This document shows, one piece after another, positions 7,095 through 40,942 of a stretch of 46,859 nt of DNA. The stretch is from Pseudomonadota bacterium (GTDB lineage: Bacteria > Desulfobacterota > DSM-4660 > Desulfatiglandales > B25-G16), in the NCBI GenBank assembly GCA_030603345.1, contig JAUVXZ010000002.1, positions 1 to 46,859 on the forward strand. The letters run 5' to 3'. Numbering within the stretch: position 1 is the stretch's first letter; every line of letters begins with the position of its first letter. A program made the position numbers and the translations under genes. The notes below the pieces were generated by a model. It did not search any database and was not told where the DNA came from. It saw only the letters and a list, made by a program, of their open reading frames with translations.

Positions 7095-8486
7095 ATGAGT
7101 ATAGCACGAGAGCTCGCAAAGAGCGCAAACAGCTTGATCTTTGAAGATGTACCATCCGATGTGATCCACCAGACAAAACGCCTTGTGCTTGACACGCTTG
7201 GCTGCGCTATAGGCGGCTATAGGAGTGAGGCGAGTAGGATCATTCAGGAAGTCGTGAAAGAATTAGGTCATTCTGAGGAGGCAACAGTTTTCGGCAGCGG
7301 GCTGAGAACATCGTGCCTGAACGCCGCACTGGCTAATGGTGCCATGGTTCGCTACCTCGACTACAATGATACCGCCTTTATGATCCAGGGGGAGACCTAC
7401 AGAACCGGCTACCACCCCAGTGAGGTCATTCCCCCGATACTAGCGTTGGGCGAACGGCAACATTTGCCAGGAAAGAGCATCATAACAGCTATTAATTTGG
7501 GCTACGACCTATCGCTGGCCTTCCTGGAAGGTGTCATCGGCACGGGGATGGAGAAGAGGGGGTGGAATGGTGATACGAGGGGTGCATTTATAATGCCTCT
7601 CGTAGCCGGTAAAATCCTCGGCCTTGCTGAGGAGCAGATGGAAAGCGCAGTGGGCATAGCGGGTAGTTGCCATGCCGTGTTGGGCATCCTCGATACCCCA
7701 GCAGAAGAATATACTATGACGAAGAACATACGGTTCCCTATGGTGTCTTATGGGGGAATCTTGGCGGCCATGCTTGCCCAAAAGGGATTCACCGGTCCCG
7801 CCAGCATAATAGAGGGGCACGATGGCTTTGTTGAAGTCATCATGGGTGGAGACTATGATGTTGAAAGGCTATTAGGATTTAAGGGTAAGTTTGCTATCCG
7901 CGAGACCTGTATCAAGTCAATTATCGCTGACTTTTCCTCTCACGGTCATTTGACAGCGACGCTGACCCTTGCACGGGAACACGACATAAAGCCCGAGGAC
8001 GTTATCGAAGTCAGGATTACCACAAGCAAACGGTGTGCTGAGCACACTGGTGATCCGGTAAAAAAGTACCCAAAAAACAAGGAGACAGCTGACCATAGTT
8101 CCTATTACCTCACTGCCATTGCCATAATAGACCGCGAAATAGGGCCGGACCAATTCACCCCTGAAAAGTATAATGACCCTAAAGTGCGAGAACTCATTGA
8201 TAAGGTCGTCCTCCAAGGTGATCCCAAATTAGATAAATTTCGACCCGCTGGTATTTCGGAAATCATCACTAAGCAAGGCAAGAAGTATAGTCTTCGGGTG
8301 GACCATCCTAGAGGACACGCCCGCAATCCCATGACGGATGAAGAAGTTGTGGACAAATTCAAAAGCATGGCTTCAAAGTGCATGAGTGAAGACCATGTGG
8401 ATCAAGTCATCGACACCGTTTTTACTTTAGATAAGCTGGACGACATTGGAAAACTTAATAGGCTTATGGCCTTTAGAGACAGTTGA
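7095..8486 (+). CDS. MmgE/PrpD family protein, paralogue 1 (2-methylcitrate-dehydratase-like subtype)
   Basis: About 463 aa from the ATG at 7095 (GAGGAGG upstream). N-terminus 'FEDVPSDVIHQTKRLVLDTLGCAIGG', 'YLDYNDTAF', and C-domain 'KETADHSSYY'. Confidence 0.85.
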   Translation: MSIARELAKSANSLIFEDVPSDVIHQTKRLVLDTLGCAIGGYRSEASRIIQEVVKELGHSEEATVFGSGLRTSCLNAALANGAMVRYLDYNDTAFMIQGETYRTGYHPSEVIPPILALGERQHLPGKSIITAINLGYDLSLAFLEGVIGTGMEKRGWNGDTRGAFIMPLVAGKILGLAEEQMESAVGIAGSCHAVLGILDTPAEEYTMTKNIRFPMVSYGGILAAMLAQKGFTGPASIIEGHDGFVEVIMGGDYDVERLLGFKGKFAIRETCIKSIIADFSSHGHLTATLTLAREHDIKPEDVIEVRITTSKRCAEHTGDPVKKYPKNKETADHSSYYLTAIAIIDREIGPDQFTPEKYNDPKVRELIDKVVLQGDPKLDKFRPAGISEIITKQGKKYSLRVDHPRGHARNPMTDEEVVDKFKSMASKCMSEDHVDQVIDTVFTLDKLDDIGKLNRLMAFRDS

Positions 8487-8575
8487 AACAGATAGGCTGA
8501 GGTTCACCATTCGCTGGCATGAGCTTGCAAAGTAAGAGGTAATTGACACAGGTGTTTGATATAAGAATTTCGTTT

Positions 8576-8601
8576 AAGACAAAGTTTGTCTAACTTGTCT
8601 T
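8576..8601. promoter_or_regulatory. Palindromic AGACAAA-G-TTTGTCT plus an extra AACTTGTCTT arm, upstream of the CoA-ligase genes; candidate operator or weak hairpin
   Basis: There is a perfect 7-bp-arm palindrome at 8577-8591. The following AACTTGTCTT can pair with AAGACAA(A)GTT. The site is 67 nt upstream of the ATG at 8668. Confidence 0.2.
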
Positions 8602-8667
8602 TTGATTCGGCTGAGCTGCCGCTTACCACCCAGCTTCCGAATTGTTGAAATACTACGGAGATCACAT

Positions 8668-9951
8668 ATGGCAAGAATTTATGAATACCAGGGGAAAGAG
8701 ATGCTCGCAAAGGTAGGTATTCCTGTCCCCAAAGGGAGATGTGTAGAAAGTGCTGACGTGGCCAGAAATGCAGCCGATGATATCGGAAAGCCAGTTGTTG
8801 TAAAGGCCCAGGTTTGGGTGACCGGGCGTTTAAAAGCAGGAGGCATCAAATTCGCCAAAACGCCTGAGGAGGCTGAAAAGGCTGCCAAAGAGCTCATTGG
8901 TAGCGAGATTAAGGGGCTGATCGTAGGAAAGGTGCTGATTGAAGAGCAACTTGAGGTTGATAGGGAGCTTTATGTCGGCGTAATCGTGAGTAATTCATTC
9001 AAGGTAAAAGGACCAGTACTGATAGTGAGCAGTGAGGGAGGTGCATCTATTGAAGAGGTTTCTCAGAGAAATCCTGAGAGGATTGCTCGGTTGAATGTTG
9101 ACTACCTACAGGGTGTAGGATCTGAGGAGGCAAACCAATTGCTATCGAATGTATCTTTCAATGGCAGGGACTTGTCTAAAGAGCTAACTCACGAACTGGC
9201 AGAGGTTATTTCCAATGTCTATAAGGCCTTTACCCAATATGACGCCAGGGCTCTGGAAGTCAATCCTTTAGTCTTAACCAAGGACAACCGTATTATTGCC
9301 GCTGATTGCCATCTTACGCTTGATGATAACTCCGTGTTTCGGCATCCCGAGTTGGGCATAAAGGTGCCTCGTGACATGGACAGACCACCGACTGGGTTGG
9401 AACAGAGAGCCTGGATGACCATAGAAGAGGGCGATTATCGAGGAACAGGGTACTTCGCACAGATGGTAGCAAAAATAGAAGGCGACAGCTGGCTTGGGTT
9501 TCATGGCATAGGTGGTGGCGGCGCCATGCTCGGAGCCAGCGCATTTGTGGCACGGGGCTTTAAAATCGCCAACTATGCAGACACCAGTGGAGATCCTCCA
9601 GCCAGCAAAATCTACAGCGTGATTAAATACATCCTGTCACAACCCATTGACGGCTATGTCCTGATGGGGGCCACCCTTGCCAATCAGGAGCAATGGCATC
9701 ATGCTCATGCACTTGTGAAGGCGTTTAAAGAAGAGGCTGAAAACAGGCCAGGATTTCCTGTGATCATGCTGCTTGCAGGGAACAAGGAAGAGGAGGCGCA
9801 CGATATAATAAAGAGCGAATTTAAGGACTTGCCACTACGGTGGGAATTGTACGGCAGAGAGTATATTTACAATACAGATTTCATTGCAGATAGGGTGGAA
9901 GAGTTGGTTAAGGCCTATCAGATGGAGAGGCGCACGGCGCAGAAGGAGTAG
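8668..9951 (+). CDS. NDP-forming acyl-CoA synthetase beta-like (ATP-grasp) subunit; succinyl-CoA synthetase / malate thiokinase / citryl-CoA synthetase superfamily
   Basis: The N-terminus 'MARIYEYQGKEMLAKVGIPVPKG...VVVKAQVWVTGRLKAGGIKF' parallels SucC 'HEYQAK...VVKAQV..GGRGKAGGVK'. ATG at 8668 follows GGAG. At about 427 aa it is longer than a typical SucC. Confidence 0.8.
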   Translation: MARIYEYQGKEMLAKVGIPVPKGRCVESADVARNAADDIGKPVVVKAQVWVTGRLKAGGIKFAKTPEEAEKAAKELIGSEIKGLIVGKVLIEEQLEVDRELYVGVIVSNSFKVKGPVLIVSSEGGASIEEVSQRNPERIARLNVDYLQGVGSEEANQLLSNVSFNGRDLSKELTHELAEVISNVYKAFTQYDARALEVNPLVLTKDNRIIAADCHLTLDDNSVFRHPELGIKVPRDMDRPPTGLEQRAWMTIEEGDYRGTGYFAQMVAKIEGDSWLGFHGIGGGGAMLGASAFVARGFKIANYADTSGDPPASKIYSVIKYILSQPIDGYVLMGATLANQEQWHHAHALVKAFKEEAENRPGFPVIMLLAGNKEEEAHDIIKSEFKDLPLRWELYGREYIYNTDFIADRVEELVKAYQMERRTAQKE

Positions 9952-9958
9952 TGGTGCA

Positions 9959-10249
9959 ATGGCTGCGAATAGACTAGAGCTTGAAACAAGAAAGACTAAG
10001 ATCACTATTGACTACAGCCGGTGTCTTCCCGCAATGGAAAACACGTCAGATCCAGCCTGCAGATTTGCCTGTGTAAAAGCATGTCGATTATATGGCCGAA
10101 ATATCTTAAAAATTGAGGAGAATAGACCCGTGCTGGCAGTCAAGGACCCTGAAGAAATAAAAAGGTTGGATAATGAGTGTATTAGCTGTGAGTACAACTG
10201 CCAGCGGTATGGTGCTGGGTGTATCAGCATTGAAATCCCTTTGCAATAG
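9959..10249 (+). CDS. Small cysteine-rich (8 Cys) ferredoxin-like protein of unknown function
   Basis: About 96 aa from the ATG at 9959, preceded by AGGAG at 9944-9948. It has two Cys groups, 'C..(11)..CRFACVKAC' and 'CISCEYNCQRYGAGC'. It sits exactly between the beta-like and alpha-like ligase subunit genes. Confidence 0.6.
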   Translation: MAANRLELETRKTKITIDYSRCLPAMENTSDPACRFACVKACRLYGRNILKIEENRPVLAVKDPEEIKRLDNECISCEYNCQRYGAGCISIEIPLQ

Positions 10250-10281
10250 CGGAGGTAAGCTCTCGGTAGGAGATAGCTATT

Positions 10282-11187
10282 ATGCCAGTGTTGATTGATG
10301 AAAATACACGAATGCTTATCCAGGGTATTACTGGAAGGTTTGGGCAGGGTGTAGCCAGGCGTATGATAGAGGTGGGTTCCAAGGTAGTTGTTGGGGTTAC
10401 GCCGGGCCGGGGTGGTCAATCTGTTTGGGGCGTAGCGGTTTATGATACCGTGAAAGAAGCATTAGAAGCGGTTGGATCAGTGGATGCAGCTGTTACGGTC
10501 GTACCAGGTCCGGAGGCCAAGGGAGCAGTGATAGAGGCCTTTGAAGCAGGGATAAAAACAGTTCTGATGCGCGTAGAAAGGGTGCCTCTGCATGATTCCC
10601 TTGAGATCATTGCCCATGCCAAGAAACATGGGATAAGACTGATTGGCCCGGGTTCAGCAGGAGTAGTGAGCCCTGGAAAGGCTTCTTTGGGTGGGTTAGG
10701 CGGCTTTATGGGTTCTTCAGATTTGCCGAGAATAGCCTTCAAACCTGGCCGGATAGGTGTCATCTCGCGCAGTGGCGGGCAAACCTCTACCTTGAGCTGG
10801 GCTGTTTGCAGTGCTGGGTTTGGGATTAGCACAGCCGTTCATTTGGGTTCCGAGCCAGTTTTGGGAACAACATTGCCGGAACTGCTTCCTCTGTTTCAAG
10901 AAGATGACCAGACGGATGGAGTAGTGTATTTTGGGGAGATCGGAACCGTTATGGAAGAGGAGGCCACAGAGGTGATTAAAGCCGGAGGTTATACAAAGCC
11001 GTTGGTGGCATACATAGCAGGCAAAGGTCTTCCTTCAGGATTACGGTTTTCTCATGCCAGTGCTATTGTAGAAGGTGGGAAAGGAACAGCAGAAGGGAAG
11101 ATTATGGCATTTAGAGAGGTTGGAGCCCATGTTGTTGACAGACCGGAAGATATCGGGCCTGCTTGCCAAAGGGTTTTCGGAAAATAG
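10282..11187 (+). CDS. NDP-forming acyl-CoA synthetase alpha-like (CoA-binding, phosphohistidine) subunit
   Basis: 'LIQGITGRFG' is a CoA-binding Rossmann-like N-terminus. 'ISRSGGQTSTL' matches SucD 'SRSGTLTYE'. 'SHASAIVEGGKGTAEGK' matches the SucD phosphohistidine loop 'GHAGAI', and the His is retained. Confidence 0.8.
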   Translation: MPVLIDENTRMLIQGITGRFGQGVARRMIEVGSKVVVGVTPGRGGQSVWGVAVYDTVKEALEAVGSVDAAVTVVPGPEAKGAVIEAFEAGIKTVLMRVERVPLHDSLEIIAHAKKHGIRLIGPGSAGVVSPGKASLGGLGGFMGSSDLPRIAFKPGRIGVISRSGGQTSTLSWAVCSAGFGISTAVHLGSEPVLGTTLPELLPLFQEDDQTDGVVYFGEIGTVMEEEATEVIKAGGYTKPLVAYIAGKGLPSGLRFSHASAIVEGGKGTAEGKIMAFREVGAHVVDRPEDIGPACQRVFGK

Positions 11188-11222
11188 CCAGTCGATAGCG
11201 GTTTAGTTGCGGGAGGACTTTG

Positions 11223-12182
11223 ATGGTGAGAATACTGAGATCAATGCTGTATGTTCCGGCAAACAGCTGGCGAATGATCATTACTGCTGTGTCTGAGGGA
11301 GCAGATGCGGTTATCTTAGACTTGGAAGACGGGTGTCCAATGGCTGAAAAGGAGACAGGCAGAGTTTTTGCCAGGGATTCCCTCTCTATGTTAAAGGAGC
11401 AAGGCCTTGAAGTTTATGTCCGGGTAAATTCCCTTGAGACAGGCCTACCGGAGATAGATATCAGCTATGTGGTGACTCAGGGGCTTGACGGCATTATGCT
11501 CGCCAAGACAGAGTCAAAAGAGGACATCATCAGTCTTGATAAGCTTATAGAAAAAGAAGAGCAGAAAAAGGGACTCGAGTTAAACAGTATTACTCTCATT
11601 GCTCTTATTGAAACTCCGAGGGGGATTCTGAACCTACCCCAGATTATTGCTGCTGGCCAACGCATAGAAGCTGTAGCCTTCGGTGCAGGAGATTTCTCGC
11701 GAGAGATGGGCGCTGGGATGGGGGTCACTAAGTTATCGCCTGAGGAGTATTTTCCCATGGTTCTTCATGCACGATCGAGCATCGCCATGGCAGCAAGGGC
11801 AGCAGGCATTCAAGCCATAGATACACCCTTTTTTGGGTTGGTCATAGATCTTGAGGGGCTTGCAAGAGAATCGGAAAAAGCCAAGCTGCTGGGATTTTCA
11901 GGGAAGCAAGTGACTCATCCTCGGCATGTGGCTGTAGTCAATGAGTGTTTTTCACCGGCTAAAGAAGATGTTGATTTTGCTAAACAAGTCGCAGAGGCCT
12001 ATAACGCTGCAAGAGCAAAAGGATTGGGAGCTACAACTTTGGGTGGGAAGATGATCGACTATGGTTCATTCAAGCGGGCAGAGGGTCTTTTGTCATTGGC
12101 TGAGGCGATAGAAAAAAAAGAGAAGAAGAAGTCAGAAGAACAATCACGGGGGAGGTCCGATTTCAGCGACTCCCCGGTGTGA
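11223..12182 (+). CDS. HpcH/HpaI aldolase - citrate lyase beta (CitE)-like acyl-CoA lyase (malyl-/citramalyl-CoA lyase type)
   Basis: 'SMLYVPANSWRM' and 'AVILDLEDG' are typical of the CitE family. The ATG at 11223 is 6 nt after GGAGG. The protein has an unusual Lys/Glu-rich extended C-terminal tail, '...AIEKKEKKKSEEQSRGRSDFSDSPV'. Confidence 0.8.
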   Translation: MVRILRSMLYVPANSWRMIITAVSEGADAVILDLEDGCPMAEKETGRVFARDSLSMLKEQGLEVYVRVNSLETGLPEIDISYVVTQGLDGIMLAKTESKEDIISLDKLIEKEEQKKGLELNSITLIALIETPRGILNLPQIIAAGQRIEAVAFGAGDFSREMGAGMGVTKLSPEEYFPMVLHARSSIAMAARAAGIQAIDTPFFGLVIDLEGLARESEKAKLLGFSGKQVTHPRHVAVVNECFSPAKEDVDFAKQVAEAYNAARAKGLGATTLGGKMIDYGSFKRAEGLLSLAEAIEKKEKKKSEEQSRGRSDFSDSPV

Positions 12183-12413: not shown

Positions 12414-13151
12414 ATGAGATTGGAAGGAAAAAAAGTGATTGTTACTGGCGCCAATGGAGGTGTGGGACAGGCGATTTCCCGGCTGTTCGAGCAGGAAGGG
12501 GCAGCTGTAGCAATGATTGACCGGGTGACCGCTTCCTGTGAATTGTTGGCCCAGGAAATGAGGCGTAAGAGAAGGAAATCCCTCGTAATCCAAGCAGATT
12601 TGAGCCGGGTCGGAGGCATCAAGGAATTGGTGAAAAAGGTAAAGGAAAATTTCGGGGGGATCGATATCCTTGTGAGCAATGCTGGAGTAGTGGAACGACA
12701 TACCCTTGAAGAGATAAGGCCCAAAGACTGGGACTGTACTTTTAATGTGAACCTCAAGGCTGCGTTTTTTGCCATCCAGGCCGTGGTCCAATACATGAGA
12801 GCCCAGAAGGACGGGAGGATTGTTTGTATTGGATCGAGGGCCAGCAAGGACGGAGGGATGAATGTTGGAATTAGTTATGCCGCATCTAAAGCGGGCCTTG
12901 AGCTCCTGGTAAAGAGACTGTCAAGGGATATGGGGTCTTGGGGAATCCGCATTAATTTGATTCGACCCGGCGCCATTGACACTCCCTTTCTTGATGATTT
13001 AAGTCTGGAACAGAAGGAGGACATACGGAAGGCGATTCCCCTTGGGCGATTGTGTTCACCTTGGGAAGTGGCCCAGGCTGCTCTCTTCTTAGCTTCGGAC
13101 GAATCGAGTTTTATTTCTGGAGCCATACTCGATATCGCTGGAGGTCTTTGA
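12414..13151 (+). CDS. Short-chain dehydrogenase/reductase (FabG-like SDR)
   Basis: 'VTGANGGVGQAI' is the TGxxxGxG motif, 'SNAG' is present, and the catalytic 'YAASKAG' gives YxxxK. 245 aa. Confidence 0.85.
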   Translation: MRLEGKKVIVTGANGGVGQAISRLFEQEGAAVAMIDRVTASCELLAQEMRRKRRKSLVIQADLSRVGGIKELVKKVKENFGGIDILVSNAGVVERHTLEEIRPKDWDCTFNVNLKAAFFAIQAVVQYMRAQKDGRIVCIGSRASKDGGMNVGISYAASKAGLELLVKRLSRDMGSWGIRINLIRPGAIDTPFLDDLSLEQKEDIRKAIPLGRLCSPWEVAQAALFLASDESSFISGAILDIAGGL

Positions 13152-13277
13152 TGCTCACTCTAAAACTGGCAAGCGTGTCGGTAGACTGCAGCGATCAGGC
13201 TGAGTGCTACGGTTAATAAAGGATTAAGGCTGGAGTAAAAGAATCACTGAAAACAGATTTTGTGGAGAAGGTTGGCT

Positions 13278-14429
13278 ATGTTTTTCAATATAGCGCTGTA
13301 TGTTTCGCTGATCATTTTCATCATTGGATTGATTTATAAATTATGGACATGGTTCCACAAAGATGTCGGAATGGGCGAGAAAGAGATTTCAGCCTACAAA
13401 AGGCTTTTCTCTGCTATCAAAGGAATACTGGCGACTGTGTTTAGTGGAAAAATCGTTACCCTTATTAAGGTTTTTGTGCTTGATGTCATCTTGCAATTAC
13501 GAATCCTAAAGGACAGTGAGGACCGCATTCTCTGGATCATGCATATACTTATTTTTGTCGGCTTTATTCTGCTTCTCCTTATGCATGCTTTGGGCAATAT
13601 TGTTACTTCCTATCTTTTCCCTGAGTATCAATCCACGCTGAATCCTTTCTTGTTTCTGCGGAACCTCTTTGGCCTATTCGTTATCGTCGGGTTGCTGCTG
13701 GCTATTGTCCGGAGGGCCTCGCTCAAAAGGGGTCAGTTCAGGACAACTGGTATGGACTATTATGTTATTGTGATCTTAGCCCTAATCGTTATTTCAGGTT
13801 TCCTGCTTGAAGCAGCAAAGATAAGCTCCTATTCCGCCTACCAAAGAATGGTGGAAGACTATGCTTCAGCGACAGAGGACAGTGAAGCTCAAGCTTTAGA
13901 GGCTTTTTGGGTAGTGAACTTTGGAGTCGTGTCTCCCAAAACACAGATGCCTTTTTCAGCTGAAATGCTGGTGCAGGGAAAGGAATTGCACGAGATGAGC
14001 TGTGCCTCCTGCCATTCCAGGCCTCAATCGGCTTTTATTTCTTACGGAGTGAGCAAGGCTATAAAGTCCATTGCTCTAAGAGTGGATAGGGTACGGGTCG
14101 ACACCTTGCTGTGGTATATTCACTTCCTGTCCTGCTTTGTCGGCCTCGCCTATCTCGCTTTTAGCAAAATGTTTCATGTTTTTGCTACACCGGTTAGCCT
14201 TTTGATTAATGCAGTAACAGAAATTGGAAAAGAAAGCCCTGCCAATGTAGCCACAAGACAGATGATCGAACTTGACGGGTGCAGCCATGGCGGGATCTGC
14301 CATATGGAATGTCCTGTCTGGAGAAAAAGACAGGAAAGAATAAACAGGTCGAAACCATTTGGTCCGATGCTGGGCTACGTTAGTGAGAAGGACTGGAAGG
14401 AGCTGGGGAACCGTTTCTATGAGGAGTAG
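13278..14429 (+). CDS. Integral membrane redox subunit, NarI/DsrM-like di-haem cytochrome b type, with an extra CxxCH motif and a C-terminal Cys cluster
   Basis: About 6 predicted TM helices. His pairs occur in helices 'WIMHILIFVGFILLLLMHAL' and 'WYIHFLSCFVGLAYLAFSKMFH'. A soluble insert carries 'CASCH', and the C-terminus carries 'CSHGGICHMECP'. ATG at 13278 follows GGAGAAGG. Confidence 0.6.
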   Translation: MFFNIALYVSLIIFIIGLIYKLWTWFHKDVGMGEKEISAYKRLFSAIKGILATVFSGKIVTLIKVFVLDVILQLRILKDSEDRILWIMHILIFVGFILLLLMHALGNIVTSYLFPEYQSTLNPFLFLRNLFGLFVIVGLLLAIVRRASLKRGQFRTTGMDYYVIVILALIVISGFLLEAAKISSYSAYQRMVEDYASATEDSEAQALEAFWVVNFGVVSPKTQMPFSAEMLVQGKELHEMSCASCHSRPQSAFISYGVSKAIKSIALRVDRVRVDTLLWYIHFLSCFVGLAYLAFSKMFHVFATPVSLLINAVTEIGKESPANVATRQMIELDGCSHGGICHMECPVWRKRQERINRSKPFGPMLGYVSEKDWKELGNRFYEE

Positions 14430-14583
14430 ACTCGGGTCGTTCTAGAAACTTGTTCGAAAAGCGGGGGATGCATTTTGATAAACAATAGAGGGGAATTGAG
14501 TAAGGTTGTTATTGTTTGGGTACCGCAGACTGCTGCGTGCGATAGCACTTACTGGCATATGACAATCTCATCATCCGGGGAGA

Positions 14584-32991: not shown

Positions 32992-33071
32992 TAAACTCCC
33001 CTCTTTTGTACACAATTGTGGCTTTTCAACTGGTTACCTAGAGGTTTAAGCGTACTGACTTAGCAGCGAGG

Positions 33072-34513: not shown

Positions 34514-34538
34514 CGATTACGCTGCCACCTCCATAACC

Positions 34539-35069
34539 CTAGAAGATGCTCTCTCCCTGTGCTATAGCAATAATCGCAGGGAGCCCTTTGACTTCCAGTT
34601 CATAGAGGGCCTCCATTCCCTCTTCCTTAAATGCCACGATCCGCTGATAAAGGATTCTATCTGAGAACAGAGCGCTGACAGGGGGTGTGATGGCAAAAAG
34701 GGAATTATAATTCTCCAGCTCGAAAACGGTTCTTGCGCTTAAGGAACCCTTTCCCACATGGATCTTTACACCCGCCTTTGCAAGGGCAGGAATACTTCGT
34801 TCGATTTCAACCTTGTTGCTCGTCGTGGGGCCAATGCCAGCAAGGCTTACCGCTGTATGGAAGATGACTGCTCCCTTCAGGTTTATGGCTATGGTGCCCA
34901 AGGTATCATTCTCGATTAGCCTCACCAGTTTGGGCAGAATAGCGTCCCTTCCGCAGTAGATAATCCCATGGATCTCAATTCTGTCACCTATCTCCAGCCT
35001 TTCGGTTTCGTTCTCACCGATTGGTGTCTGAACCTTAATCGTTCCCTTTTCTTTTCCAGATTTTTTCAT
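34539..35069 (-). CDS. Fe-S hydro-lyase, class I fumarase / tartrate dehydratase beta-type subunit
   Basis: 176 aa. 'IHGIIYCGRDAILPKL' and 'KIHVGKGSLS' resemble the TtdB/FumB C-terminal domain. It lies directly upstream of the alpha-type subunit. Confidence 0.8.
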   Translation of the reverse strand: MKKSGKEKGTIKVQTPIGENETERLEIGDRIEIHGIIYCGRDAILPKLVRLIENDTLGTIAINLKGAVIFHTAVSLAGIGPTTSNKVEIERSIPALAKAGVKIHVGKGSLSARTVFELENYNSLFAITPPVSALFSDRILYQRIVAFKEEGMEALYELEVKGLPAIIAIAQGESIF

Positions 35070-35073
35070 CCTG

Positions 35074-35787
35074 CTATGCTGTCATCTCCGCAACCGCTGC
35101 ACCTCTGGTGGCTTGCAGTTCTCTATATCTCGTTTCAAGCTCTGGCTTGTCGGAGGCCTTTAGTTTCTCTATTTCATCCTTAAACTTATCCTCTGCTATC
35201 TCAGTCAACCTCTGCTTCAAGTGAGGAGCTGGTGGGATCACGTGTTTTCCGTACATCCTCCTTATGAGTAAGGCGATATTGAAGGGAGATAGTTCAGCGG
35301 GACAACGCGCTGCACACATCCCACACATTATGCATTCCATAGAAAGCTCAACTACTTTTGCAAAATCCCCACGGATCGCCGCAGACACATAACTCATTAC
35401 TTCTAGGTCCATTGGGCACGACTTGGTGCAGGCATTACACCCCATACATTTCAGGAGCTCGGGATAGAGCCTGATAATGTTAGAATCAGTTAGGGGTGTA
35501 TTTTTGATTGTATAGAGCGCTTTATTTGCGGATGTGTAAGGAAGTTGAACCAAGTCCATATCTGGCTCTACCACGGTCTGACAGGCCAGACCGACGTTGA
35601 TCTTGTAGTCACCCTTCTTCCTATAGACTGTCACGCAGGCGCCGCAGACACCACCCCGGCAGCCACATCCCCTTTTCAGCATATAGCCGGAAAATTCCAA
35701 TGCCTTCTGAATGGTCAGCCCCCGCGGTACCTCGTATTTCCTTCCCATCACGTAGATAGGTATCATTTTAATGATATCGTTTAGCAT
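35074..35787 (-). CDS. Succinate dehydrogenase / fumarate reductase iron-sulfur subunit-like protein
   Basis: A 2Fe-2S-like 'CGCRGGVCGACV' is followed by two ferredoxin motifs, 'CMGCNACTKSCP' and 'CIMCGMCAARCP'. The gene starts 3 nt after the flavoprotein gene. Confidence 0.8.
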   Translation of the reverse strand: MLNDIIKMIPIYVMGRKYEVPRGLTIQKALEFSGYMLKRGCGCRGGVCGACVTVYRKKGDYKINVGLACQTVVEPDMDLVQLPYTSANKALYTIKNTPLTDSNIIRLYPELLKCMGCNACTKSCPMDLEVMSYVSAAIRGDFAKVVELSMECIMCGMCAARCPAELSPFNIALLIRRMYGKHVIPPAPHLKQRLTEIAEDKFKDEIEKLKASDKPELETRYRELQATRGAAVAEMTA

Positions 35788-35789
35788 CC

Positions 35790-37433
35790 TTAGGCTCTAA
35801 AAGGCTCTTTAGTATACTGTACCATCATCAGGGCCTTTTCAAAACGGTAATCGGGAAGGAGCATCGGCGAAACTGTGTCGGTAGTAGTCTGTTCTTCCAG
35901 CAACAGTTCATTATATGCCTTTAGATGCTCAAGGGACAACTTCCTGATCTTGGTTTTATTGATCCTCTGTGCTGCATACTCTCCAGTTCTACGTCCAAAG
36001 ACAAAAATATCTACCAAGGAGTTTGATCCCAACCGGTTGTGACCATGGACACCGCCTTGTACCTCACCAATTGCATAAAGATTGGGAACATCGGTCTCGC
36101 AGTGCACATCAGTTTGGATTCCTCCATTTTGATAGTGCTGCGTTGGATAGACTAAAATAGGATCTTTGATGGGGTCGATATCATATTTCTGAAACCGTTT
36201 GTGAATCCCTGCGAACCTTCTTAAGAACGTTCCATCCCGGCCTATTACGTCTATGAGTGGAGTGTCGAGCCACACCCCAACCATTCCGGTAGGGGTCAAA
36301 ACCCCTTTACCCCTTTCCCCGCATTCCCGGATAATCGCGGCAGACAAGGCATCTCTCGTTTCCAGCCGGTCGACAAACATCTCACCGTCGACGTTCACCA
36401 CTTGGGCTCCTTGAGCCCTAAGCGCCTCAGAAACGAGGAGGCCCAGCATCTGCTCAGGCCAGGCAACGCCTGTGGGATGATATTGAATATAGTCAATGTA
36501 CAGCAGTTTGGACCCTGCCCTATAGGCCATTATCAATCCATCTGCGGTTGCCCCGTAATGATTGGACGTTGGAAATCCCTGTGGATGTAAACGCCCTATG
36601 CCTCCTGTGGCAATAATGGTGGTTTTGGCTTCAACAACGATATACTGATCCGTGTCAAAGTTTAGCAGCACGGACCCTGCGCATTTTCCCTGATCATCTA
36701 AGACGAGTTCAACAGCAGGGCTAAATTCCAAGACATTGATTTCCTGGTTGCGAATTTCATCGCAAAGAACCCTCATGATCTCCAAGCCGGTAAGGTCCTT
36801 TACTGAATGAGATCTTCTCCGGGAATGTCCAGCAGGCATGTGGGTGAAGTAGGTGCCATCAGGAAGCCGATCAAAATTAACACCCAGATTCGTGAGCCAC
36901 TCCACAATGAAGGGAGCATCCTGCACTAACGCTTCAACCAATTCGGGAATGTTTTTGAACCTTCCGCCTACCACGGTATCGATGTAATGGATGGCAGGTG
37001 AATCCTCAGGTAATGTTGCTGCACCGATGCCACCCTCAGCCATGATCGTGTTTGAGTCACCCAGTCTCAATTTTGTCGCTATTAATACTTCTGCTCCGTG
37101 TTCTTTCGCGGTCAAGGCGGCAGTTAGCCCCGCCCCACCGGAACCAACAACCAATATGTCCGTCTTATAGTCTACCTTTGTTAGGTCAATGATATCGGGA
37201 TTAAGTCGGCCGGGAGATTCCAATAAATCCACCAATTCTTTAGGAGCTGAATCTCCCTTGTTTGACCCCACCCGAATCTGCCTTTTTTCGGCTGGACGGA
37301 AATCAGGATGGTAGGTCTCCAATAATGTGGTCTTTTCAGCAAAATCTAGTCTCGGGAAAGTCTGCTCCCTGCGGAGACGCCGTGAGGCCTCTACTTTTTT
37401 GAGAGAGCCTTGCATTTCAGGTGGATAAGCCAT
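35790..37433 (-). CDS. Succinate dehydrogenase / fumarate reductase / L-aspartate oxidase-type FAD flavoprotein, with a ~90-aa N-terminal extension
   Basis: 'ILVVGSGGAGLTAALTAKEHG' and 'GVHGHNRLGSNSL' match the family 'GANRLGGNSL'. 547 aa. No strong SD precedes the ATG at 37433, so the exact start is uncertain. Confidence 0.8.
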   Translation of the reverse strand: MAYPPEMQGSLKKVEASRRLRREQTFPRLDFAEKTTLLETYHPDFRPAEKRQIRVGSNKGDSAPKELVDLLESPGRLNPDIIDLTKVDYKTDILVVGSGGAGLTAALTAKEHGAEVLIATKLRLGDSNTIMAEGGIGAATLPEDSPAIHYIDTVVGGRFKNIPELVEALVQDAPFIVEWLTNLGVNFDRLPDGTYFTHMPAGHSRRRSHSVKDLTGLEIMRVLCDEIRNQEINVLEFSPAVELVLDDQGKCAGSVLLNFDTDQYIVVEAKTTIIATGGIGRLHPQGFPTSNHYGATADGLIMAYRAGSKLLYIDYIQYHPTGVAWPEQMLGLLVSEALRAQGAQVVNVDGEMFVDRLETRDALSAAIIRECGERGKGVLTPTGMVGVWLDTPLIDVIGRDGTFLRRFAGIHKRFQKYDIDPIKDPILVYPTQHYQNGGIQTDVHCETDVPNLYAIGEVQGGVHGHNRLGSNSLVDIFVFGRRTGEYAAQRINKTKIRKLSLEHLKAYNELLLEEQTTTDTVSPMLLPDYRFEKALMMVQYTKEPFRA

Positions 37434-37805: not shown

Positions 37806-38138
37806 TAATTAAGCTAGTTTCTTTACCGGGTTGAGAAAAATAGTCTGGTCCGAGAGTTACCTATGTGGCGGGTATTCATTGATTCTGAAATCTGAACTAA
37901 TGCATCACGGTGAGGGGCAATACGAGCTCCAAAGCTTTCGTAAAGTGCTTGATTCCATTGGTCAGCCTGTCATAGATTCATTAGCATCTCCAACTATTTT
38001 GGACACTCAGGGGACAAAGAGGCAAGATTCTGGTAAGTGCGTATTCGATAGCATATATCCATGCCACAAGGTATTTACGATATTCAACGCATTGACGCTG
38101 AGCATTATATAGTTAAAAGAATAAGTACTGTATACATT

Positions 38139-38903
38139 TTATTTATCCTGATGTATCCAGATGCTGCCCTGTTTTCTTTTGACACTCTTTAGGCGAACAA
38201 TATATTTGTACAAGTCCCCCCGATATGAGGACTGAACCACTTCAACTGGTTTCCGATTTTTAGCATACATAATTCTTTCAACAAATAAAATTGGTGATCC
38301 GGAGGGAATTCCTAATTTATGTGCCACTTCTTGGTCTGCAAAGGAGGCTTCGATAGTTTGAAATGCTTCGGTAAATCGAATCCCCAGGTCTTGTTCCATG
38401 ATCTGCAACAATGGCTTTCTATATAGGTCCGTTTCCTTGATTTTACTGCCAATCTCAATGGGGAGATAATTTATAGTGTAAGCAAAAGAATTTTCCAGTA
38501 AGAATCGGACCCGTTTGATTTGTACAACCTCATCGTGTTCGCTACGTAATCTGAGCTTCTCCTTTATCGGTTGTGGTGGTAACATTCTGGCCATCGTCAC
38601 CCATTTTGTTTTGGACTTCGATATTTGGTAGAAGAGGTCGTCCATAAATCCACTAAATTCTAGACTGAAACTATTTATTAAATTTTCATCCCTAGTTACG
38701 AATGTGCCCTCACCTCTCTTGCTGCTTAGAAAGCCTTCTTGAATTAGGTGAGAAATAGCCTGACGAACTGTTAATCTGCTAACATTAAATCTCTTCGAAA
38801 GTTCATTTTCAGAGGGGATCTTATCCCCTGGTTCATATTCCCTGTTAATGATCCAATTCTTAATAGTCTGCTTGATCTGATAATAGACAGGTAAGAGGGT
38901 CAT
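38139..38903 (-). CDS. GntR-family transcriptional regulator, HutC/UTRA subfamily
   Basis: Winged-helix N-terminus 'IPSENELSKRFNVSRLTVRQAISHLIQEGFL..KRGEGTFV' plus a ~170-aa UTRA-like effector domain. AGGAGG lies 6 nt upstream of the ATG. Confidence 0.85.
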   Translation of the reverse strand: MTLLPVYYQIKQTIKNWIINREYEPGDKIPSENELSKRFNVSRLTVRQAISHLIQEGFLSSKRGEGTFVTRDENLINSFSLEFSGFMDDLFYQISKSKTKWVTMARMLPPQPIKEKLRLRSEHDEVVQIKRVRFLLENSFAYTINYLPIEIGSKIKETDLYRKPLLQIMEQDLGIRFTEAFQTIEASFADQEVAHKLGIPSGSPILFVERIMYAKNRKPVEVVQSSYRGDLYKYIVRLKSVKRKQGSIWIHQDK

Positions 38904-39277
38904 GCTGTTCCTCCTTTCCCTAAGTTCTACGAGGATTCTTTATTTGACCTTTACCTTGCATTCCAAGTTCGATAAAGACCAGCAAATGTCTCTTATTTTA
39001 CAGTATTAGCAGTATTGACTAATTCTCCGAGCATAAAAAGAAGAAAATCTCTTTGTATCTAGATGGCCACTTATTCTACCAAAGGGGCGAGCCATTCACA
39101 ACCTCACTTCAATGAGAATTTCACTAAAGGATTTTCCACTTCCTTAAAAGTATGGTTATGCGGATATGTTATCATTCATTTTTTTGTTTTTTGTCAATAA
39201 GTAATATCGGTGTTGTCAGATAGAAATCATGAATCGACCTTTGATTCAAAAACAGTAACGCTTTTTGTCACAGAGTT

Positions 39278-39306
39278 TTGAATTTCTCCTTTGAACGTTT
39301 TATAAT
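39278..39306 (+). promoter_or_regulatory. Candidate sigma70-type promoter upstream of PrpD paralogue 7
   Basis: TTGAAT (39278-39283), a 17-nt spacer, then TATAAT (39301-39306). This would leave a ~180-265 nt leader. Confidence 0.35.
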
Positions 39307-39571
39307 TTGTGGTAGCGTCTTAAAGGAACACTCTGTCTGATTTGTTTTTTCATTTCAATATGTTAATTCATAACAAGAAGGAGCCCCTTGCCACTTTAAT
39401 ACATCTGGAAGCATTATTTTTTGCCCGTTTACCTTGTAGGTATGCTAGGAAATTTGAATTGTGGAATTTTAACCAAGAGGTTTTACTATGTCCAAGAATG
39501 GTACTACGTCAGAAGGAACGAGGCATTACTCCCAGCGACCAAAGCTAGAGTCAGGCGCCGGAGAAGCCCAT

Positions 39572-40942
39572 ATGGGTGACCGCAGGCGTGCTTTGGATGT
39601 CACGAGAAAGCTAGCCAAATTTGTCCATGACTTGCATATTAGTGACCTGAGCCAAGAGGTATGTAACCAGGGACTTCGGGTTATTCGTGACACCCTTGGG
39701 ACAATGCTCGCCGGCGCTGTGCTGCCTGAGGTAAGGGGCCTGGCAGAAATGGTGAACACCCTGGGCTGTTCAGGTCGGTCTACCCTCATGGGACGTCAAG
39801 AGACAGTGAGCCCACATGTTGCCGCTCTGGTTAATGGCACAGGTGCTGTATCCTTAGAGTTAGACGAAGGTAACCAATTTGCAATTAATCATCCAGCAGT
39901 GCATATCTTGCCAGCCGCACTGGCGCTAGCAGAGGAACAGAGGCAATCGGGCGCCGAATTGCTGACAGCCTTCATCGCTGGATACGAGGTTGCCGTTCGT
40001 GTTGGGCGAGCAACGCACCTTCGTGAGGCAGTACACCCCTTTGGCACGCACGCTATTATGGGTGTGGCAGCGGCGGCCTGCCGGTTGCTTGGCCTTGATG
40101 TGGAGCAGACGGCCCAGACCTTAGATCTGGCAGCAGGTATGTGCATTGCTTCTTCGCAGACAGCTGCAAACACAGGTGCATCTGTTCGTAACCTGGTCAC
40201 GGGCCTAACTAACCATAATGGCTTGCTGGCGCCCTTGCTCGTGGGGGCTGGCTTTACAGGCGAGCCAGGTTCGTTGAATGTGGTGTTCGGACGCATCCTG
40301 GGTGATTCTTTTAAGGATGGTGGATTGGGGGAAGACCTCGGCCGGGAGTTCTACATTAACCGCAATTACTTCAAACTCTATGCCTGTAGCCGATGGAACC
40401 ATGCGCCCATAGAGGCCATGGCCGCTCATCTTGCTCGGACTCCATTTGAGGCGGAGGATGTTGAGGAGATTACAGTTTGGACTTACGATCCGGCTACCCG
40501 TTTGAGTTGGGGTGATCCACCCAATGGCTATGCGGCAAAACATTCGATACCATACAATGTTGCGGTTAGGCTAGTACGCGGCACTAACGATCTAGAGGCC
40601 TATTCAGAAGAGGTTGTATCCGACCCCCAGGTTCAGGCGGTTGCCAGGCGTGTGGTCGTTCGGGAGGATCCTAAGCTGACAGCAATGCTGCCTGACGTGA
40701 GGCCTGCCCGAGTCGAAGTTAAGCTGCGGAACGGAAGTATACTGACTGAGAGCGTTGAACGGCCACGTGGGGGGTTTGACAGGCCTTTAACAGAAGAGGA
40801 ATTGAAGACTAAATTCCATCGTCTCGCACGCATTGCCCTACCGGAGCATGCGGTGGAAGGACTAGAAAAAATGCTGGTGAACCTGTTGGAGTTGGAGGAT
40901 ATAATCTTGCTCAGCCCCTTTTTGCAGGGAGTGAAGACTTGA
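39572..40942 (+). CDS. MmgE/PrpD family protein, paralogue 7 (same subtype as 3-5)
   Basis: Motifs 'LDEGNQFAINHPAVHILP', 'HPFGTHAIMG' and 'KHSIPYNVA'. The ATG at 39572 (GGAGAAG upstream) gives an N-terminus matching the other paralogues in length. The alternative start at 39488 (AGAGG upstream) would add 28 aa. Confidence 0.8.
   Translation: MGDRRRALDVTRKLAKFVHDLHISDLSQEVCNQGLRVIRDTLGTMLAGAVLPEVRGLAEMVNTLGCSGRSTLMGRQETVSPHVAALVNGTGAVSLELDEGNQFAINHPAVHILPAALALAEEQRQSGAELLTAFIAGYEVAVRVGRATHLREAVHPFGTHAIMGVAAAACRLLGLDVEQTAQTLDLAAGMCIASSQTAANTGASVRNLVTGLTNHNGLLAPLLVGAGFTGEPGSLNVVFGRILGDSFKDGGLGEDLGREFYINRNYFKLYACSRWNHAPIEAMAAHLARTPFEAEDVEEITVWTYDPATRLSWGDPPNGYAAKHSIPYNVAVRLVRGTNDLEAYSEEVVSDPQVQAVARRVVVREDPKLTAMLPDVRPARVEVKLRNGSILTESVERPRGGFDRPLTEEELKTKFHRLARIALPEHAVEGLEKMLVNLLELEDIILLSPFLQGVKT

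Follow-up and report, generated by a model that had tools for sequence, protein, structure and literature searches.

The window analysed here, the whole 46,859-nucleotide (nt) stretch of contig JAUVXZ010000002.1, contains seven open reading frames (ORFs) of the MmgE/PrpD family, which were named P1 to P7 in order of position, from P1 at 7095-8486 to P7 at 39572-40942. The seven are old paralogues, and they lie in three gene modules that recur in other genomes. The favoured reading, to which we give a probability of about 0.45, takes the window for a gene island of an uncultured marine sulfate reducer (Desulfobacterales) that would serve the breakdown of 2-substituted analogues of succinate, maleate or citrate derived from cyclic amides. 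It would consist of three modules, each organised around members of the MmgE/PrpD superfamily other than PrpD itself.

Seven MmgE/PrpD paralogues and their active sites

The ORFs of the window were annotated by profile searches against Pfam and NCBIfam. The results showed that P1 to P7 each match both MmgE_PrpD_N (PF03972) and MmgE_PrpD_C (PF19305) over nearly their whole length (E 1e-34 to 1e-68), with 117-229 bits per domain against a gathering cut-off of 32.1, confirming the seven PrpD-family ORFs reported in a first-pass annotation of this DNA. P1 (7095..8486), P2 (17850..19208), P3 (20925..22283), P4 (22532..23965), P5 (24007..25383) and P7 (39572..40942) lie on the plus strand and P6 (28579..29973) on the minus strand. 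All seven ORFs are uninterrupted and have a stop codon; they start with ATG or, in P6, GTG, and a Shine-Dalgarno-like purine run precedes most of them. A tblastn search of P1 to P7 against the window returned exactly seven regions, and an eighth copy or fragment was not found.

Pairwise identities among the seven are only 24-40%, so they are old paralogues and not recent copies; recent tandem duplication is ruled out as their origin, which also disposes of the alternative that all seven are recent copies of one PrpD. The identities reproduce three subtypes that the first-pass annotation had seen by eye, namely P1 with P6 (34% identity), P2 by itself, and P3, P4, P5 and P7 (36-40%), P5 being the most divergent paralogue. 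The motifs quoted for these subtypes largely held (LDYND and KETADHS in P1 and P6, LDMDDGH in P2, (K/R)(F/H)SIP in P3, P4, P5 and P7), but two had been over-generalised: P4 lacks GN.F..HPA(I/V)H, and P5 has DPHGS rather than HP(H/F)GT. The ratio of nonsynonymous to synonymous substitution rates (dN/dS) against the closest orthologues in the fetched loci was 0.06-0.21 wherever dS was unsaturated, which covers six paralogues (among them P1, 0.078; P3, 0.07-0.13; P4, 0.15-0.21; P5, 0.14-0.19; P7, 0.13), and these six are under purifying selection. For P2, dS was saturated in all three comparisons; where dS was saturated, the proportion of nonsynonymous differences (pN) was far below that of synonymous ones (pS). 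Given the low dN/dS and the retention of active-site residues, all signs suggest that P1 to P7 are functional, and the alternative that several of them are pseudogenes was dismissed.

None of the seven reaches the cut-off (458-950 bits) of an NCBIfam PrpD equivalog model (TIGR02330, NF006943, NF042438). The best scores are those of P6 (101 bits, cut-off 575) and P1 (85 bits, cut-off 950), and P5 has no match to any of the three. Identity to Escherichia coli PrpD is 20-24%, and prpB, prpC, acnD and prpF were not found among the window ORFs in the Pfam and NCBIfam annotation. Judged from sequence, none of P1 to P7 is a bona fide 2-methylcitrate dehydratase. That they are nevertheless ordinary, redundant 2-methylcitrate dehydratases for propionate oxidation, as the family name and the automatic naming of many orthologues as '2-methylcitrate dehydratase' would have it, is scarcely credible against scores of at most 101 bits, such low identity to PrpD and a window without those four partner genes. 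The proposal that P1 and P6 are closest to genuine 2-methylcitrate dehydratases likewise failed: their scores of 85 and 101 bits are far under the cut-offs, and both score higher against cis-aconitate decarboxylase or iminodisuccinate (IDS) epimerase than against solved PrpDs, although they carry two PrpD-like motifs, an Arg before LD(Y/F)ND and DH(S/C). The closest solved relative is cis-aconitate decarboxylase for P1 (and, by BLAST, for P7), IDS epimerase for P6 and the uncharacterised 'B. subtilis IRG1' for P2 and P3, the last two structures being the closest for P2 to P5 as a group; all these identities are about 22-27%. In databases, orthologues are named 'MmgE/PrpD family protein', 'hypothetical' or, automatically, '2-methylcitrate dehydratase'. 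P3 has 3198 relatives at E <= 1e-30 among 8000 candidates scored, and the closest 120 relatives each of P3 and P6 (66-98% identical) are nearly all unannotated or carry the automatic name.

The MmgE/PrpD family has a member in about a fifth of sequenced prokaryotic species and only four known activities: 2-methylcitrate dehydratase, cis-aconitate decarboxylase, IDS epimerase and methylsuccinate isomerase (PMC12290011). All four bind a 1,4-dicarboxylate (succinate-type C4) core and add or remove the C2 proton via an enolate (PMC12290011). The common catalytic core is Asp/Glu88, His99 and Lys266 in IDS epimerase, equivalent to Asp93, His103 and Lys272 in IRG1 (PMC12290011, PMC7347537). P1 to P7 were aligned by MAFFT with IDS epimerase, mouse IRG1 and E. 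coli PrpD, and the mapping of characterised members' active-site residues that the first-pass annotation had proposed showed the Asp/Glu-His-Lys core intact in all seven.

Around this core the clades differ. P2 is the sole paralogue to keep all six IDS-epimerase-type binding or catalytic residues, H85, D88, H99, H150, K198 and K266 appearing as H88, D91, H102, H153, K205 and K269. Position 85 is Arg in P1 and P6 and Thr or Val in P3, P4, P5 and P7, and Lys198 is replaced by Arg in the latter four; at position 150, where the alignment was shifted manually, P1 has Asn, and P5 has Asp in place of this second His. With Arg at the His85 position and the DH(S/C) motif, P1 and P6 resemble E. coli PrpD and IRG1, and P2 to P5 and P7 carry the (K/R)(F/H)SI motif of IDS epimerase. 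His277 and Tyr318/319 have been reported to be important for IRG1 activity (PMC7347537). The residues of P1 to P7 at the His277 position are D/C/C/C/A/M/S, with Cys in P2, P3, P4 and IDS epimerase; position 319 is occupied by His, a gap or Ile in an alignment that is uncertain near this point. The second catalytic Tyr of the two known epimerases (Tyr145 in IDS epimerase, Tyr148 in the isomerase) is absent from P1 to P7, the aligned residues being M, L, I, L, L, I and L, and no Tyr lies near the second-base position in the adjoining aligned segment of any paralogue.

Conservation within orthologue groups is strong. Among 117 P3 orthologues, T87, E90, R200, K262, C266 and R268 are invariant, and H101 (116/117), C267 (115/117) and H149 (112/117) nearly so; among 121 P6 orthologues, R87, D90, H102, W151, H152, K202 and K267 are invariant. 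Each clade has a distinct putative active-site signature.

Three recurring gene modules

Related loci (n = 160, each of at most 21 kb, designated L with a number) were obtained by pattern scans of one genome per species and by exact look-ups of database homologues, and were compared with the window proteins by BLAST; their hosts include uncultured Desulfobacterota and Chloroflexota. One PrpD-family ORF was found in 114 loci, two in 26, three in 16 and four in 3. The window, with five in 12 kb and seven in 34 kb against a maximum of four per 21 kb in the related loci, is the densest PrpD cluster among the loci compared, and its density is exceptional. The co-localisation of the seven genes is not due to chance, for three modules come back in the loci of uncultured Desulfobacterota and Chloroflexota. 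Recurrence of the neighbourhood in related genomes, raised by the first-pass annotation, was thus borne out, as were the neighbours it had listed: a CoA ligase and lyase, flavoproteins, a tungsten enzyme, a bis-molybdopterin guanine dinucleotide (bis-MGD) Mo enzyme and enzymes like those of the tricarboxylic acid (TCA) cycle.

Other clusters with several PrpD-family genes were also seen (among L107, L123-L126, L131-L132 and L138-L139). Metagenome-assembled genomes (MAGs) of Syntrophorhabdaceae carry P1-like, P6-like, LeuCD-like, isocitrate-dehydrogenase-like and P1-like genes together; the groundwater Deltaproteobacteria loci L131 and L132 have three P1-like ORFs each when those above 250 aa are counted, L132 with a fourth, shorter match; and an Eremiobacterota MAG has four and the isolate Acuticoccus mangrovi three PrpD-family ORFs.

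The plus strand of the window carries, in order, a Liv-type ATP-binding cassette (ABC) transporter, an aldehyde:ferredoxin oxidoreductase (AOR), P1, a SucC-like gene, a small Cys-rich ORF, a SucD-like gene, a CitE-like lyase gene and a short-chain dehydrogenase/reductase, followed by the bis-MGD Mo/W enzyme with ferredoxin and membrane subunits, P2, the flavoprotein FAD484, P3, P4 and P5. A minus-strand operon with intergenic gaps of 2-88 bp reads, 5' to 3', the flavoprotein FAD547, its Fe-S subunit, fumarase-like beta and alpha subunits, unk178, LeuCD-like large and small subunits, a beta-decarboxylating dehydrogenase (IsoDH), P6 and an Fe-S/cytochrome b protein; unk277 and then an isochorismatase-family hydrolase follow downstream on the same strand. 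The window closes with a GntR regulator and P7, after which come a gene of the opine dehydrogenase family, an amidohydrolase resembling hydantoinases and dihydropyrimidinases, a carbamoylase-like CN_hydrolase and the beginning of another Liv transporter. An Rfam scan of the window gave no RNA family match, and promoter and terminator scans gave a result no better than shuffled sequence.

Module A has the order (cyclic amidohydrolase-GntR)-P1-SucC'-small Cys ORF-SucD'-CitE'-P2-FAD484-(ABC binding protein, permeases, ATPases)-P3, and was found in Desulfatiglandaceae, Syntrophaceae, Desulfomonilaceae, other Desulfobacterota, Myxococcota and Chloroflexota MAGs. Nineteen P1-anchored loci extend 6 kb or more downstream; of these, 16 carry both subunits of the ligase together with the lyase, 15 carry P2 and 12 carry FAD484. 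P1, the first gene of the module A operon, has orthologues (61-90% identity) that precede the same CoA ligase and lyase genes in 16/19 loci; P2 orthologues follow the lyase gene in 15/19. FAD484 lies within 12 kb of P3 orthologues in 17 of 19 loci. A GntR gene precedes P1 in most module A loci. In 16 further loci P1 comes with an amidohydrolase of allantoinase/hydantoinase-like type (495 aa; 60-96% identity with the L107 copy), which mostly lies upstream of GntR-P1 but in L110 and L111 downstream of P3.

Module B comprises the flavoprotein with P3-P4-P5, the isochorismatase-like hydrolase, unk277, P7, and hydantoinase-like and carbamoylase-like hydrolases. In a complete Desulfobacterales genome (CP070694), an amidohydrolase, a CN_hydrolase, FAD484, P3, P4, P5, EthD, an isochorismatase, unk277, P7 and a Liv permease are contiguous, and L015 and L161 carry the same module B genes. 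P4 orthologues follow P3, and P5 follows P4, in L002, L005, L015, L016 and L161; P7 orthologues lie beside P3 and a Liv permease in L001 and beside unk277 in L016. An obligate P3/P4/P5 hetero-oligomer was considered and is thought unlikely, P3 occurring without P4 and P5 in most loci. The hydantoinase/allantoinase-like amidohydrolases, the CN_hydrolase and the isochorismatase-like hydrolase, which the first-pass annotation had missed, recur with the PrpD genes and are the most informative neighbours.

Module C consists of fumarate-reductase-like, fumarase-like, LeuCD-like and IsoDH-like enzymes, P6 and cytochrome b. A 59-kb contig of a close relative (L161, unk277 86% identical) repeats the window order from FAD547 to P6, cytochrome b, unk277 and isochorismatase, after which come an amidohydrolase, unk384, a CN_hydrolase and then P5-P4-P3-FAD484; L015 is the same. 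In L103, a Guaymas Desulfobacteraceae MAG, the module C operon itself also contains citryl-CoA-synthetase-like and citryl-CoA-lyase-like genes; the additional genes of relatives (ATP-grasp with Citrate_bind, about 511 aa; Citrate_synt, 258 aa) are both missing from the window copy. In L021 a fumarate reductase (Frd)/fumarase (Fum)/ligase/lyase/cytochrome b operon is joined to FAD484-P3-EthD-isochorismatase and a TctABC transporter, and in L104 a divergent GntR gene precedes the operon, which also holds a major facilitator superfamily (MFS) transporter. P6 orthologues 57-73% identical occur in many anaerobic phyla, and P6 directly follows the IsoDH gene in 48/74 loci, the hosts of this pair including Anaerolineae, Thermotogae, Bipolaricaulota, Synergistota, KSB1 and archaeal MAGs (among L023-L102). 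In these other phyla only housekeeping genes recur beyond the pair.

Accompanying genes of the window

Upstream of P1 on the plus strand, the first Liv-type transporter (14..4436) comprises a periplasmic binding protein cut at the window start, two permeases and two ATPases (Pfam Peripla_BP_6, BPD_transp_2 twice, ABC_tran twice), and the nearest solved structures to the binding protein are Peripla_BP_6 proteins, urea-binding ones among them. The tungsten-type AOR follows at 4802..6817, plus strand (AFOR_N E 1e-75, AFOR_C E 1e-106; NCBIfam AOR 259 bits, under the cut-off of 868). The CoA ligase is encoded on the same strand by a SucC-like ATP-grasp beta subunit at 8602..9951 (ATP-grasp_2 E 6e-54; weak Citrate_bind E 2e-6; SucC equivalog 230 bits, cut-off 370) and a SucD-like alpha subunit at 10282..11187 (CoA_binding and Ligase_CoA; SucD equivalog 261 bits, cut-off 336). 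Between them the small Cys-rich ORF (9974..10249, start approximate, plus strand; about 90 aa) has no Pfam or NCBIfam match; it is 60-95% identical and in the same position in 12/12 module A loci tested, and may be an Fe-S or zinc subunit of the ligase. The CitE/RipC-like acyl-CoA C-C lyase (11220..12182, plus strand) belongs to the HpcH/HpaI fold (HpcH_HpaI E 3e-47) and is under the equivalog cut-offs of citE (210 bits, cut-off 443) and RipC_Ccl (151 bits, cut-off 375); it also matches RipC, the citramalyl-CoA lyase model of the itaconate pathway, at E 5e-44.

Three further plus-strand features complete the stretch around P2. A short-chain dehydrogenase/reductase (12414..13151; adh_short_C2) does not reach a specific NCBIfam equivalog. 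The bis-MGD Mo/W enzyme, a four-cluster ferredoxin and a NarI/QmoC-like membrane subunit occupy 13260..17752 (Nitrate_red_gam, Molybdopterin, Molybdop_Fe4S4, Fer4_11). The enzyme has 857 aa and, since its N-terminal Fe4S4 domain begins at residue 17, would lack a Tat signal and be cytoplasmic; its best NCBIfam model is PhsA (248 bits, cut-off 694). The trio recurs 3' of module A in L107 (80% identity) and L118 (66%). In L107 a xanthine-dehydrogenase-type Mo hydroxylase (4414-8858) lies directly upstream of the module A amidohydrolase; as a conserved module A partner it would have suggested N-heteroaromatic substrates, but it was rejected as such, since only L107 has it and distant homologues occur in two unrelated loci. 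FAD484 (19434..20888; FAD_binding_2) is a soluble flavoprotein of the fumarate-reductase/urocanate-reductase/TcuA/KstD family, whose enzymes saturate or desaturate a bond next to a carboxylate. Over its full length it can be aligned with PDB neighbours that include fumarate reductases of the flavocytochrome c3 type and urocanate reductase, and it scores 266 bits on flavo_cyto_c (cut-off 285) and 158 and 111 bits on the two NCBIfam TcuA models, below their cut-offs of 369 and 373.

The isochorismatase-family hydrolase (25767..26468, minus strand; Pfam Isochorismatase) resembles biuret hydrolase and RutB-like amidases, with BiuH (100 bits) and RutB (83 bits) both under cut-off. It adjoins unk277 in L015, L016 and L161, and occurs without it in L021. 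The conserved protein unk277 (26571..27404, minus strand) has no Pfam or NCBIfam match and 609 database homologues, none annotated, with invariant C-terminal residues C254, C261, H264 and C267; in every related locus where it was found (L015, L016, L161 and L162) it lies beside the isochorismatase-like gene. Its best AlphaFold2 model has a mean predicted local distance difference test score of 79.5, which is moderate, the other four models being poor, and Foldseek gave weak matches (template modelling score about 0.3) to NagB/RpiA/CoA-transferase/eIF2B-like folds; assignment of a function from these matches was rejected as they are too weak.

Around P7, the GntR/UTRA regulator of HutC type (38139..38903, minus strand; GntR, UTRA) is divergent from P7. 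P7 is separated from the hydantoinase-like gene by a member of the octopine/nopaline (opine) dehydrogenase family (41243..42349, minus strand; Octopine_DH E 6e-36, NCBIfam model not reached). No counterpart was seen in the related loci; the gene could point to the metabolism of N-(carboxyalkyl)amino acids or have no connection with the others. The cyclic amidohydrolase (43110..44474, plus strand) clearly belongs to the dihydropyrimidinase/hydantoinase/allantoinase/dihydroorotase group, under the cut-offs of TIGR02033 (344 bits, cut-off 393) and of the allantoinase, dihydroorotase and ErtD models; a 72% identical orthologue lies beside FAD484-P3-P4-P5 in L016, and paralogues of 32-38% identity lie in the same neighbourhood in L015 and L161/L162. 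The CN_hydrolase (44818..45675, plus strand; E 6e-53), an N-carbamoyl-amine/amino-acid amidase-like protein scoring 186 bits on N-carbamoylputrescine amidase (cut-off 410), adjoins the amidohydrolase in L016 as well (79% identity). In L015 and L161, unk384 (6475-7629 and 13307-14461, respectively) stands between a 33% identical CN_hydrolase paralogue and the amidohydrolase; this 384-aa protein matches neither Pfam nor NCBIfam models and carries a Rossmann-like GxGxxG in its N-terminal part. None of the EthD, CMD and unk384 genes of relatives is in the window. The first permease of the second Liv-type transporter (45909..46796, plus strand, running towards the window end; BPD_transp_2) has 53-79% identical orthologues, which adjoin P7 in L001 and L016; in many further loci they follow FAD484 or stand between it and P3.

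The module C genes are all on the minus strand. FAD547, a 547-aa flavoprotein like succinate dehydrogenase, fumarate reductase and L-aspartate oxidase, and its 2Fe-2S/4Fe-4S subunit span 35074..37433 (FAD_binding_2, Fer2, Fer4); FAD547 scores 319 bits on TfrA, 301 on NadB and 284 on SdhA/FrdA, all under cut-offs. The class I Fe-S hydro-lyase of fumarase/tartrate-dehydratase type, alpha and beta (33650..35069; Fumerase, Fumerase_C), reaches the ttdA_fumA_fumB domain model (112 bits, cut-off 101) and not the equivalogs. Next, unk178 (33072..33608; 178 aa) is weakly HD/HDIG-like (HD E 0.004; HDIG 27.4 bits) and stands immediately upstream of the LeuCD-like large subunit in L103, L104, L161, L023, L024 and L095; it was also seen in the archaeal loci L076 and L079. 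The LeuCD/HacAB/DmdAB-type two-subunit Fe-S dehydratase-isomerase (31229..33015; Aconitase, Aconitase_C) reaches PRK00402 (539 bits, cut-off 385) and LEUD_arch, 'LeuD/DmdB family' (175 bits, cut-off 109). IsoDH (30022..31140; Iso_dh E 2e-86), of the isocitrate/homoisocitrate/isopropylmalate family, reaches no NCBIfam equivalog, the best being homoisocitrate dehydrogenase AksF2 (344 bits, cut-off 540). The 4Fe-4S and cytochrome b membrane protein (27584..28564; Ni_hydr_CYTB, Fer4), which closes this operon in L103 and L161 too, is the probable quinone-linked anchor of the Frd-like enzyme. As a whole, the operon looks like a partial reverse or branched TCA set.

A proposed catabolic island and the alternatives to it

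Whereas gene content and synteny are as described above, we infer every chemical step of the favoured reading. The Liv-type ABC transporters would import a carboxylated five- or six-membered cyclic amide, imide or ureide, whose ring would be opened by the hydantoinase/allantoinase-like amidohydrolases. The carbamoylase-like and isochorismatase-like hydrolases would then take off the remaining amide or carbamoyl group, leaving a 2- or 2,3-substituted succinate, maleate or aspartate-type di- or tricarboxylate. On the four-carbon dicarboxylate core the PrpD-fold proteins would act without a cofactor, by enolate chemistry of the conserved His, Lys and Asp(Glu). From their PrpD/IRG1-like motifs, P1 and P6 would most likely be dehydratases/hydratases or decarboxylase-type lyases; P2 to P5 and P7, with motifs like those of IDS epimerase, would most likely be epimerases or double-bond isomerases that supply the right stereo- or regio-isomer and may use the conserved Cys as their second base. 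Desaturation of the succinate core would fall to FAD484 and to the Frd-like complex anchored by cytochrome b, the fumarase-like and LeuCD-like Fe-S hydro-lyases would hydrate and isomerise this core, and the IsoDH-like enzyme would oxidatively decarboxylate one branch. The SucCD-like ligase and the CitE-like lyase would convert a 2-substituted malate or citrate analogue into an acyl-CoA and a 2-oxo acid.

Such a scheme is a network and not a line, several substrates or isomers being funnelled into desaturation, hydration and then cleavage or oxidative decarboxylation; it is proposed because the conserved partner enzymes fit the C4-dicarboxylate core chemistry of the family. The first-pass annotation had read the locus as a multi-step, undescribed pathway on polycarboxylates. 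This part is reasonable, because old, intact PrpD-family paralogues stand in a neighbourhood that recurs in genomes. However, they do not look like successive stages of a single linear pathway, as the genes fall in at least three modules that are also found apart: P1-P2-P3 operons occur without P6, and IsoDH-P6 occurs alone in Thermotogae and Bipolaricaulota. The multiplicity of paralogues would then reflect several related substrates or isomers, not seven consecutive steps.

Several observations weigh against the island. The cyclic amidohydrolase of module A is absent from the window's copy of that module, where the ABC transporter and AOR precede P1 instead. An epimerase assignment appears weak for any of the seven paralogues, as none has the Tyr that serves the two known epimerases as second catalytic base. 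In flavocytochrome c3, the two Arg residues of the EAVRG and RLGGN motifs bind and protonate fumarate; FAD484 has Ile and Tyr at these positions, so that it is unlikely to be a plain fumarate reductase. All window enzymes are below the cut-off of every specific NCBIfam equivalog and reach only broad subfamily or domain models. The surroundings of IsoDH-P6 where it stands alone in Thermotogae and Bipolaricaulota are housekeeping genes, so P6 may serve central metabolism and not a catabolic route. Finally, no cultured organism carrying the island was found.

The same modularity could mean that independent pathways are merely juxtaposed, the modules degrading unrelated compounds and having been gathered in a flexible genome region, with PrpD paralogues that are functionally unconnected. 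Module A lacks P4 to P7 in most loci, the IsoDH-P6 pair stands alone in at least 40 loci of other phyla, P4 and P5 follow P3 in only 6/16 loci, and L015, L016, L161 and the window differ from one another in gene order between modules. This is weakened because different pairs of modules are repeatedly adjacent in different genomes: P3-P5 adjoins module C in L015 and L161, P3 adjoins the Frd/Fum/ligase/lyase operon in L021, and P3 and FAD484 connect module A to module B in L003, L019, L110 and L111. The same types of accessory hydrolase, moreover, accompany both A and B, and we regard mere juxtaposition as doubtful, if worth keeping in mind. Somewhat less probable is that module C, including P6, belongs to central carbon metabolism as a reductive or branched TCA variant, with P6 dehydrating citrate or a homologue to cis-aconitate alongside the LeuCD-type hydratase and the isocitrate-dehydrogenase-like enzyme, in parallel to PrpD and aconitase of the methylcitrate cycle. 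The L103 operon, with Frd-, fumarase-, citryl-CoA synthetase-, citryl-CoA-lyase-, aconitase- and IsoDH-like genes, P6 and cytochrome b, looks like such a set; about 60% identity of IsoDH-P6 across phyla, even archaea, fits a core function; and two motifs of E. coli PrpD, Arg-LD(Y/F)ND and DH(S/C), are present in P6. Yet the operon has no gene for malate dehydrogenase, 2-oxoglutarate:ferredoxin oxidoreductase or succinyl-CoA synthetase, the window copy has no citrate-cleaving genes and sits within the catabolic island, the L104 operon comes with GntR and an MFS transporter, and IsoDH reaches no isocitrate dehydrogenase equivalog.

A different emphasis would make the paralogues, chiefly P2 to P5 and P7, epimerases for N- or S-substituted succinates, such as iminodisuccinate-like aminopolycarboxylates, opines, N-carbamoyl-aspartate or succinated thiols, which would open all stereoisomers to stereospecific hydrolases, oxidases and lyases as in the hydantoinase/carbamoylase/racemase scheme. 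The nearest solved relatives of P2 to P5 (IDS epimerase and 'B. subtilis IRG1') are consistent with this, as are the six residues kept by P2, the neighbouring hydantoinase-like and CN_hydrolase pair, isochorismatase-like amidases, amino-acid-type ABC transporters and opine dehydrogenase gene, and the fact that FAD547 scores as well on L-aspartate oxidase as on SdhA. However, the second base Tyr145/148 of the known epimerases is missing throughout, Lys198 has become Arg in P3, P4, P5 and P7, the opine dehydrogenase is not conserved in related loci, and a route for N-substituted aspartates needs neither CoA ligase and lyase nor LeuCD/IsoDH enzymes; we hold it to be quite improbable. The catabolic island could also be taken further than we favour, as a complete, new anaerobic pathway for carboxylated cyclic amides, imides or ureides in which PrpD-fold proteins have several new reactions and IsoDH-P6 is a separate, widespread module. 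Candidate substrates would then be hydantoin-5-acetate or dihydroorotate-type ureides, and alkyl- or carboxyalkyl-maleimides and succinimides from tetrapyrrole breakdown in sediments. The PrpD-fold reactions would be His/Cys-type epimerisation, an allylic double-bond shift and maleate hydration on 2,3-substituted succinates or maleates, and IsoDH-P6 would isomerise and decarboxylate a tricarboxylate, replacing or complementing aconitase-type chemistry in many anaerobic phyla. So extended a scheme is speculative and, in our view, rather unlikely.

A literature search on PrpD with hydantoinase/carbamoylase, with citryl-CoA lyase/homoaconitase, or in sulfate reducers found no description of such a cluster. 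The fold and its general chemistry are already known, but the literature searched describes neither these subfamilies and their variant active sites nor the conserved operons, nor a link of such genes to cyclic amidohydrolases or to an IsoDH-family enzyme. The locus supplies at least three uncharacterised, strongly conserved MmgE/PrpD subfamilies together with genomic partners from which substrates can be guessed and tested, and its main value is as a well-defined entry point into the enzymology of a little-characterised family in abundant uncultured anaerobes. Thousands of environmental proteins (E <= 1e-30 to 1e-40) relate to P3 and P6, and their hosts are sulfate reducers, Anaerolineae, Thermotogae and Bipolaricaulota, dominant in anoxic sediments. 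Were ring-amide or substituted-succinate compounds degraded by this route, it would be a missing piece of carbon and nitrogen turnover in such sediments, and cofactor-free isomerases or lyases might find use in biocatalysis. The locus also calls for caution in annotation, since name transfer would mis-annotate all seven as 2-methylcitrate dehydratase.

Among known systems, the prpBCDE operon of E. coli and Salmonella shares with the window the two-domain MmgE/PrpD fold and the catalytic His and Lys kept in P1 to P7; P1 and P6 have the Arg-x-x-LD(Y/F)ND and DH(S/C) motifs of E. coli PrpD in common, and P6 adjoins an aconitase-family enzyme as PrpD works with aconitase. Unlike that operon, the window has seven family copies instead of one, at 20-24% identity, and lacks both methylcitrate synthase and methylisocitrate lyase. 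IDS epimerase of Agrobacterium tumefaciens BY6 (PDB 2HP0/2HP3) is the best or near-best solved relative of P2 to P6 and shares (K/R)(F/H)SI and a Cys at the hIRG1 His277 position with P2 to P4, as well as six residues with P2, but identity reaches no more than 23-27%, none of the seven has its Tyr145, its Lys198 is replaced by Arg in P3, P4, P5 and P7, and the window has no IDS C-N lyase. Equivalents of Asp93, His103 and Lys272 of cis-aconitate decarboxylase (IRG1/ACOD1, CadA) are kept in P1 to P7, whereas His277 and Tyr318/319 are not conserved, at 22-27% identity.

The itaconate-methylsuccinate cluster of pseudomonads and Cupriavidus places a PrpD-fold enzyme, (S)-(R)-methylsuccinate isomerase, within a substituted-succinate pathway, in which a substituted succinate is converted to a 2-substituted malyl-CoA that is cleaved by a CitE/HpcH-type lyase (PMC12290011). 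The window likewise has a lyase matching the RipC/Ccl model and a class I fumarase-type hydratase. In contrast, CoA activation here would be by an ATP-dependent SucCD-like ligase and not a CoA transferase, acyl-CoA dehydrogenase, itaconyl-CoA hydratase and Tyr148 are absent, and the anaerobic host has cyclic amidohydrolases as well as Fe-S, W and Mo enzymes beside these genes. Tricarballylate utilisation (TcuABC) and the soluble fumarate and urocanate reductases have flavoproteins of the FAD484 family, and L021 has a TctABC tricarboxylate transporter beside FAD484-P3, but the TcuA score of FAD484 is 158 against 369 bits, the fumarate-binding Arg residues are replaced and there is no TcuB or TcuC. 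In gene content, the relatives of module C, with CcsA/CcsB/Ccl-like genes beside Frd, Fum, aconitase-like and IsoDH-like genes, recall the Hydrogenobacter-type branch of the reductive TCA cycle that uses citryl-CoA synthetase and citryl-CoA lyase, although the set here is incomplete and in a regulated catabolic context. Module B, again in gene content, resembles the hydantoinase process (hydantoinase, carbamoylase and racemase), combining a hydantoinase-like and CN_hydrolase pair with candidate cofactor-free isomerases, but its candidate racemases have the PrpD fold, as opposed to the Asp/Glu-racemase type of the hydantoin racemases.

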